From the IMG/VR virus record IMGVR_UViG_2529292871_000023: DNA of 17,813 bases; one strand, written 5' to 3'. A program made the position numbers and the translations under genes. Positions 4,720 to 5,052 of this stretch are shown piece after piece (position 1 is the stretch's first letter; each line of letters starts with the position of its first letter). Source of the DNA: a virus (Duplodnaviria; Heunggongvirae; Uroviricota; Caudoviricetes). The notes beneath the pieces are model-generated. The model did not search any database, was not told the origin of the DNA, and saw nothing but the letters and a program-made list of their open reading frames with translations.

Positions 4720-5052
4720 ATTGATAACAGAGGGCGTTGCAGCGGGGTTGTCACTTAAGCGTATGGTCAACCTGACAACCCGGTGTCCTCAACGGGGAAG
4801 GAATAACCCCGCCATACTTACCGCCGCGCCATTTCGCGGATTGCCACAACCGGAAGCGCACGGTCGAATTAAATTTAACGACGACCTATCTATGAACCAG
4901 CTAACCTCGCCGTGCGCTTTCGCGTTATGCTCTGACTTTTCAGAGAAATATCCTTTCAGTAAACTGTCAGTGCCGGATGTTCACCCGTGTCCGGCGCACG
5001 CACTCCACCTCACCCGTGGAGAACTCCTTAATTACTAACCTCAGGAGGGTGA

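Follow-up and report, generated by a model that had tools for sequence, protein, structure and literature searches.

The hairpin-rich segment at 4730-5040 of the window, i.e. of the whole 17,813-nucleotide stretch of viral DNA that was analysed, is the untranslated ydfC-dicF spacer of a Qin-type dicBF operon, located on the minus strand and 5' of DicF, one of the oldest known bacterial sRNAs. With a probability of about 0.8, this spacer is read here as the 5' part of the DicF precursor, in which a first portion (Module A), with a helix cut by RNase III, is followed by a second structured portion (Module B) and by a site where RNase E releases DicF. Since RNase III processing has already been published for E. 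coli K-12, the element counts as known: it is the DicF precursor leader described for that strain. The untranslated ydfC-dicF region, or 190-nt DicF precursor, of the K-12 Qin prophage is reportedly the subject of work by Faubladier et al. in 1990.

DicF was identified at 4667-4718 on the minus strand as a full-length match to Rfam family RF00039 (76.7 bits, E = 1e-15), comprising the seed region and the intrinsic terminator hairpin. The initial annotation had placed the segment upstream of DicF, which holds in the minus-strand sense only, because DicF itself lies on that strand. In the direction of the operon, the minus-strand order is a DicA-like repressor (6549-6956), ydfC (5694-5912), an insert, the spacer, DicF, dicB (4304-4492, PF05358) and the DUF1482/ydfD gene (4116-4307). 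A 314-nt query (4727-5040) is 95.5% identical to K-12 (MC4100, W3110); of 5426 complete E. coli genomes, 3511 contain 80% or more of this query. The homologous ydfC-dicF interval of a K-12-like genome (locus L001), 340 nt long, is unannotated. Homology to K-12 ends at about 5044, and ydfC is separated from the spacer in the window by a two-gene insert, absent from K-12. The insert is made up of a 77-aa gene on the plus strand (5053-5286, phrog_10348) and a 135-aa gene on the minus strand (5264-5671, phrog_1363), both assigned to PHROGs of unknown function; the two genes are convergent and overlap by 23 bp. The same prophage window also contains the sok antitoxin RNA of a hok/sok locus (11812-11961, plus strand, 103.9 bits) and two plus-strand tRNA genes (15247-15319 and 15413-15486).

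The open reading frame called at 4721..5038 on the plus strand (105 aa, TTG start) lies on the antisense strand and is spurious, as the initial annotation had suspected. Frameshifting indels were found in all 43 distinct full-length homologues, substitutions are evenly distributed over the codon positions (192/195/189), and the comparison with Pfam and PHROG gave no match. Protein-coding conservation in homologous loci, which the initial annotation had named as an observation that would speak against a structured RNA, is thus absent, and coding potential on the plus strand was rejected on the basis of the frameshifts and of the even substitutions. It is extremely improbable that the segment acts as a leader, antisense or independent regulator of the 77-aa gene, or that it codes for the 105-aa product. 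The gene is located directly beyond the segment, with a good Shine-Dalgarno sequence (aggaggg-N4-ATG), and the frame is called by the program; however, the spacer is conserved in K-12 and in most E. coli, all devoid of the 77-aa gene, the G.U pairs of the structure described below fit the minus strand only, and no promoter-like site was found on either strand of 4720-5050. Control of the 77-aa gene, an option of the initial annotation, is therefore not supported.

For K-12 the processing of DicF is documented in detail. In stationary phase two DicF species build up, one of 190 nt, stable in that phase, and one of 53 nt (Ragunathan et al. 2023, PMC10448788). The same study reports that the 190-nt species is lost in an rnc mutant and accumulates when RNase E is inactivated (rne-ts), that its 5' end is placed by primer extension at an RNase III cut in the ydfC-dicF spacer, that the 53-nt species is RNase E-dependent, that there is no other promoter inside the operon, and that read-through transcripts exist, e.g. 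a 1,608-nt species (PMC10448788). In addition, a 72-nt form has a 3' end made by RNase III (PMC5069750), and a Hfq-enriched interval is located upstream of dicF (PMC4152368). The initial proposal of an RNase III structure releasing DicF is therefore supported in substance, in that part of the segment is an RNase III processing structure, but the 5' end of the 53-nt form is made by RNase E and not by RNase III. A published secondary structure of the ydfC-dicF spacer was not found.

The stems described in the initial annotation are present at their positions. The perfect inverted repeats are GGGTTGTCA/TGACAACCC, of 9 bp (4745-4753/4773-4781), CTCTGA/TCAGAG (4930-4935/4940-4945), GCCGGA/TCCGGC (4972-4977/4990-4995), CTCCAC/GTGGAG (5003-5008/5016-5021) and GTATGG/CCATAC (4761-4766/4812-4817); to them must be added the two 5-bp stems CGGGG/CCCCG and CCGCG/CGCGG, and a 13-nt pair with 92% complementarity (4851-4863/4910-4922). 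The hairpin richness of the segment exceeds chance: seven perfect stems of at least 6 bp were counted, against 2.9 +/- 1.6 in 500 dinucleotide shuffles (seven being reached in 10 of the 500), and three of at least 8 bp, against a shuffle mean of 0.17 (0/500). Taken by itself, the folding energy of 4667-5052 is only modestly unusual, with z = -1.7 for the minus strand and -2.8 for the plus strand. The 8-nt direct repeat CACCCGTG was confirmed as exact at 4982-4989 and 5011-5018, with no further copy in the window. For this word 0.49 copies are expected, and two or more were obtained in 18 of 200 shuffles. Both copies are kept in only 24 of 69 distinct homologous contexts, and for this reason the repeat was rejected as a functional pair.

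Module A, the 5' part of the spacer (4858..5044, minus strand), consists of three local hairpins, CUCCAC/GUGGAG (5003-5021), GCCGGA/UCCGGC (4972-4995) and CUCUGA/UCAGAG (4930-4945), and of the 5' arm of a long helix. Among 24 aligned homologues the second hairpin is invariant, and the third shows a two-sided change (CCCUGA/UCAGGG vs CUCUGA/UCAGAG). The long helix (4845..4929, minus strand), imperfect and of about 21 bp, was obtained as the RNAalifold consensus of the 24 homologues and is the proposed RNase III substrate; its 5' strand reads CAUAAC-G-CG-A-AAGCGCACGG-CGA and its 3' strand UCG-A-CCGUGCGCUU-C-CG-GUUGUG. It is also given by the minimum free energy (MFE) fold of 4840-4935, with z = -2.5, and the 13-nt pair at 4851-4863/4910-4922 falls within it. 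Among the 24 homologues, the pairs of the helix are mostly invariant or changed on one side as long as a single sequence type is considered, and covariation is consequently weak there. In DicF-like loci devoid of Module B the helix is kept, at 20-27 bp, with other inner sequences (GGCGCA.../...UGCGCC), which lends it support between types, the comparison having been made by eye and by folding.

For the RNase III-made start of the long DicF species, length leads to 4854..4857 on the minus strand. An RNA of 190 nt that finishes together with DicF (4666/4667) would begin at about 4855, which is 137 nt ahead of the 5' end of DicF. This position rests on the 190-nt length, to within a few nucleotides, and on a cut mapped in K-12 and not in this prophage. 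This position falls in the 3' strand of the long helix. According to the predicted fold, the 190-nt species starts within a double-stranded candidate RNase III substrate, and we infer that the long helix is the actual substrate. A second, perfect duplex of 21 bp pairs 4638-4658 with about 4510-4530 (minus strand) in the dicB leader, 3' of DicF and outside of the segment; the fold of 4480-4725, which contains it, has z = -5.24. This duplex is the probable RNase III site giving the 3' end of the 72-nt DicF. The long helix and the 21-bp duplex together leave the sRNA cassette bordered on both sides by RNase III-type duplexes, and action of RNase III on the downstream side alone, a view based on PMC5069750, was rejected in the light of PMC4152368 and PMC10448788. 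On the 3' side, an AU-rich single-stranded linker, GCCCUCUGUUAUCAAU (4719..4735, minus strand), extends as far as the DicF 5' end generated by RNase E; it varies among homologues both in sequence and in length (12-31 nt).

Module B (4736..4850, minus strand), which accounts for the rest of the 190-nt species, folds into a four-helix junction with a pseudoknot, a structure supported by covariation. P0 pairs GUUGUGGC (4843-4850) with GCUGCAAC (4736-4743), P1 pairs CCGCG (4835-4839) with CGCGG (4824-4828), P2, a variable stem with a CU-rich loop, pairs CGGGG (4807-4811) with CCCCG (4793-4797), and P3 pairs GGGUUGUCA (4773-4781) with UGACAACCC (4745-4753). The pseudoknot is formed by GUAUGG, in the linker between P1 and P2 (4812-4817), with CCAUAC in the P3 loop (4761-4766). 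The MFE structure of 4735-4852 on the minus strand coincides with the centroid and reproduces P0-P3, and a covariance model, named R1, scores 161.5 bits on the window.

A covariation analysis across homologues, of the kind proposed in the initial annotation, supported the Module B fold across 82 sequences. When 73 distinct sequences were aligned with MAFFT, pairing was kept in 94.9% of the cells; two-sided changes affect 12 pairs, compared with 4.8 +/- 1.5 in shuffles (0/500) and at most 6 in slid controls. In a model-based alignment of the 82 sequences, biased towards the structure by construction, 95.4% of the cells are paired, with 13 two-sided pairs against 5.1 +/- 1.5 in shuffles (0/500). 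One pseudoknot pair occurs as U-A, U.G and C-G, and in Izhakiella three consecutive P3 pairs are changed on both sides. G.U cells outnumber A.C cells (145 vs 48), which indicates that the conserved structure resides in the minus-strand, operon-sense RNA. The unpaired linker GCGGCGGUAAG and loop GGUUGACCAUACGC are strongly conserved, also where the scan did not force them, in a collection whose motif-based assembly inflates the apparent conservation of Module B.

Known RNA classes were then compared with the module. At this locus the Rfam scan suggested in the initial annotation matched only DicF, besides a sub-threshold match to STnc100 in the dicB leader, and for 4719-5052 no family was found at E <= 10. 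Identification of Module B, or of the segment, with DicF RNA (RF00039) was rejected, the sole DicF match (4667-4718) being outside of the segment. A tRNA or tmRNA was likewise rejected, as ARAGORN detects no gene in 4500-5300 and Rfam tRNA matches occur only at 15247 and 15413; the cloverleaf-like order of the helices is a resemblance only. A description of the structure of Module B was not found in the accessible literature. The consensus of the RfaH ops element on the non-template strand is GGCGGTAGnnTG; Module B contains GGCGGTAAGTATG, which departs from it at position 8 (A for G), and an ops element was rejected. The GUAUGG part of this ops-like sequence covaries as RNA with CCAUAC.

The STnc100 match (RF02076) in the dicB leader (4515-4655, minus strand) is weak, with 39.8 bits against a gathering threshold of 47, and recurs after the DicF-like sRNAs of the K-12, P1, phiSTEC1589 and pPE4 loci; a full match is found in the window at 16259-16431 (plus strand, 100.8 bits).

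A conserved pseudoknotted junction with invariant unpaired bases, directly upstream of an intrinsic terminator, may suggest a riboswitch-type aptamer whose ligand decides on formation of the DicF terminator. No Rfam riboswitch class matches, however, and the terminator stem found after the P1 copy is unrelated. The stretch between P0 and the terminator, moreover, is a variable sRNA seed of 12-31 nt with no conserved switching helix, and a riboswitch is for this reason highly unlikely.

These structural elements may be combined with the K-12 data in the following scheme. The DicA-repressed promoter of a PL-like early-left operon would drive transcription of the spacer on the minus strand, and RNase III would cut the 4845-4929 helix at about 4855, thereby detaching from the mRNA upstream a stable species of 190 nt, composed of Module B and DicF. 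RNase E would then cut the AU-rich linker at 4718/4719 and free the 53-nt DicF. The sequence GUUGUG (4845-4850) is common to P0 and to the last 6 bp of the long helix, so that the two pairings are mutually exclusive, and the predicted fold of the uncut transcript uses the long helix. The RNase III cut would thereby free GUUGUG to close P0, and Module B would fold fully only after processing. This exchange of the long helix for P0 is a conjecture drawn from the models; the MFE structure of the 190-nt RNA is a different fold of similar energy. In that fold the GGCGGUA copy of Module B pairs with the 3' strand of the terminator; this heptamer occurs both in the invariant Module B linker (4817-4829, minus strand) and in the 5' strand of most DicF-like terminators (4690-4698, minus strand).

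In the scheme, Module B would act in cis as a compact, nuclease-resistant 5' domain, stabilising the long form and setting the rate at which RNase E converts it to active DicF. This stabilising and timing role is the interpretation that we prefer, and the stability of the 190-nt species, as well as the Hfq enrichment upstream of dicF, agree with it. A point against it is that P1 and Ayreon-type phages carry Module B but not the RNase III helix.

In BLAST comparisons Module B was found standing alone in P1/P7, in phages of the Ayreon/cdtI/Stx2c type and in P1-like phage-plasmids. In P1/P7 it follows the C1-controlled Pban start at a distance of about 35 nt and overlaps an annotated 'dicF-like region', the ban gene of P1 lying 2.6 kb beyond the terminator. 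In Ayreon and cdtI, where this was checked, the distance from PL is about 300 nt and includes no N-sized gene; in the window the operon promoter is more than 1 kb away. The phage-plasmids containing it number about 500, their class being judged only from a size of 90-100 kb and from non-mobilizable typing; as all plasmid matches are apparently P1-like, they add no new context. Motif scans of IMG/VR and GTDB detected further copies in Citrobacter, Trabulsiella, Erwinia tracheiphila, Izhakiella and Serratia symbiotica.

Module B is always located 12-31 nt upstream of a DicF-like intrinsic terminator. Many DicF-like loci are devoid of it, which shows that it is not needed for a DicF-like sRNA. 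Such loci feature at the same place a 5-bp hairpin, GUUGU-GAAUA-ACAAC, and Module B accordingly seems an optional insertion in that loop. From the sequences compared, it looks like an insertion in the P0 hairpin loop which was deleted precisely in some lineages. A second copy, analogous to putR, was found neither in 52 loci nor in the window.

Some of the loci show additional features. In Actinobacillus phage vB_Apl-pPE4 (locus L010, 2600-2760) two tandem, near-identical copies of the DicF-like sRNA follow a Module B which is devoid of the 5' strands of P0 and P1. In Erwinia tracheiphila, Trabulsiella, Izhakiella and Serratia symbiotica (loci L160, at about 4640-4720, L157, L164 and L144; minus-strand sense) the DicF-like terminator hairpin has a large loop, in which a strong Shine-Dalgarno sequence followed by AUG UUC UAC CG... 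forms a mini-ORF inside the terminator. In Ayreon-type phages a long-range duplex, ACAGAGAAG.../...CUUCUCUGU, directly follows the DicF-like terminator (locus L005, about 1440-1330, minus-strand sense), a parallel to the 21-bp duplex found after K-12 DicF.

The constant position before a terminator that early genes must pass also suggests a put-like processive antiterminator, acting in cis for read-through of the DicF-type and later terminators into dicB, ydfD and exo and, in P1, into the tRNAs, tciABC and ban. The short distances from the Pban start and from PL, the ban gene beyond the P1 terminator and the lack of an N-sized gene in Ayreon and cdtI fit with this function, as do the read-through transcripts of K-12 (PMC10448788); the variability of the linker tells against an antiterminator hairpin of local action and is consistent with a processive one. 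On the other hand, neither the sequence nor the covariance model shows any likeness to HK022 putL/putR or to the HK639 putL-like RNA, and there is one copy per phage, with none in the right operon. Furthermore, many DicA-type loci without an N-like protein are also without Module B and yet keep the terminator followed by dicB/kil, which implies that read-through does not need the module. Overall, the antiterminator function is judged decidedly improbable. The related idea that Module B replaces N was rejected. When 99 DicF-type loci were scanned upstream for arginine-rich N-like proteins, only one (L186) scored and another (L009) has an annotated N, both being without Module B, and many DicA-type loci lack both, so that no clean correlation emerges.

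Module B might instead be an autonomous trans-acting RNA, which binds a protein or Hfq, serves as decoy or sponge, or regulates through its CU-rich P2 loop, and merely shares transcript and terminator with DicF. Its compact pseudoknotted fold, the conserved unpaired GCGGCGGUAAG and GGUUGACCAUACGC, its gain and loss as a unit within the P0 hairpin loop and its maintenance in the P1-like phage-plasmids are all in keeping with such an activity, and so are the Hfq-enriched interval (PMC4152368) and the stationary-phase stability of the 190-nt species (PMC10448788). A separate Module B fragment has never been reported, however, the sequence of the P2 loop is variable, no target or partner is known, and the motifs used to collect homologues make conservation appear higher than it is; a trans-acting role thus appears improbable. 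In more general terms, it is possible, although unlikely, that Module B represents an undescribed class of autonomous structured phage RNA with an activity of its own, and is not a passive part of the precursor. Such an RNA might act on RNA polymerase in a put-like manner without a protein, or be a protein-binding or decoy RNA working early after induction, and it would be a domain common to P1-like phage-plasmids and to lambdoid prophages of several Enterobacterales.

No new kind of element is added, the region being the known precursor leader. The residual novelty consists in the conserved pseudoknotted domain within the long DicF form and in its presence in P1. The 190-nt 'long DicF' gains an architecture supported by covariation, in which the strand that closes Module B is also claimed by the RNase III helix, and Module B itself becomes an optional, portable module common to the DicF precursor and to the leader of the phage P1 ban operon. 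This provides a testable handle on why a stable 190-nt form exists, and on what Module B would control: the maturation of DicF, read-through of the terminator or another process.

Among known systems, the K-12 Qin spacer is the same element: on the operon strand it precedes DicF just as in the window, and its hairpins are the same; the window prophage differs from Qin by the two-gene insert, a full exonuclease gene and replication genes. The 'dicF-like region' of P1/P7 (GenBank AF234172) contains Module B (92 bits with R1) followed by an intrinsic terminator hairpin, and two-sided changes between P1 and the window preserve P2, P3 and the pseudoknot. In P1/P7, however, Module A and the RNase III helix are missing, P0 is weak or absent, the terminator stem and the seed are unrelated and the start is located about 35 nt from the transcription start.

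The putL and putR RNAs of HK022 and the putL-like RNA of HK639 are also structured RNAs of early lambdoid operons, located before terminators in phages without an N gene, and a functional analogy with Module B, but no more, is possible. The put RNAs measure about 70 nt and contain two stem-loops and a triplex (PMC9378689), whereas Module B extends over about 115 nt, forms a four-helix junction with a pseudoknot and occurs in single copy per phage. Membership in the put family was rejected: when the HK022 and HK639 genomes were searched with R1, the putL sequence used for the comparison being taken from PMC9378689, neither the put sites of HK022 nor the putL-like RNA annotated in HK639 gave a match. 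Besides the latter, the HK639 record (locus L183, 37910-37969) has an 'M3-like RNA' annotated downstream of cII.

Other sRNAs carved from a longer mRNA are likewise produced by an RNase III cut in a stem, followed by RNase E trimming. In contrast to DicF, they have not been reported to carry a conserved multi-helix domain separating the sRNA from the RNase III site.
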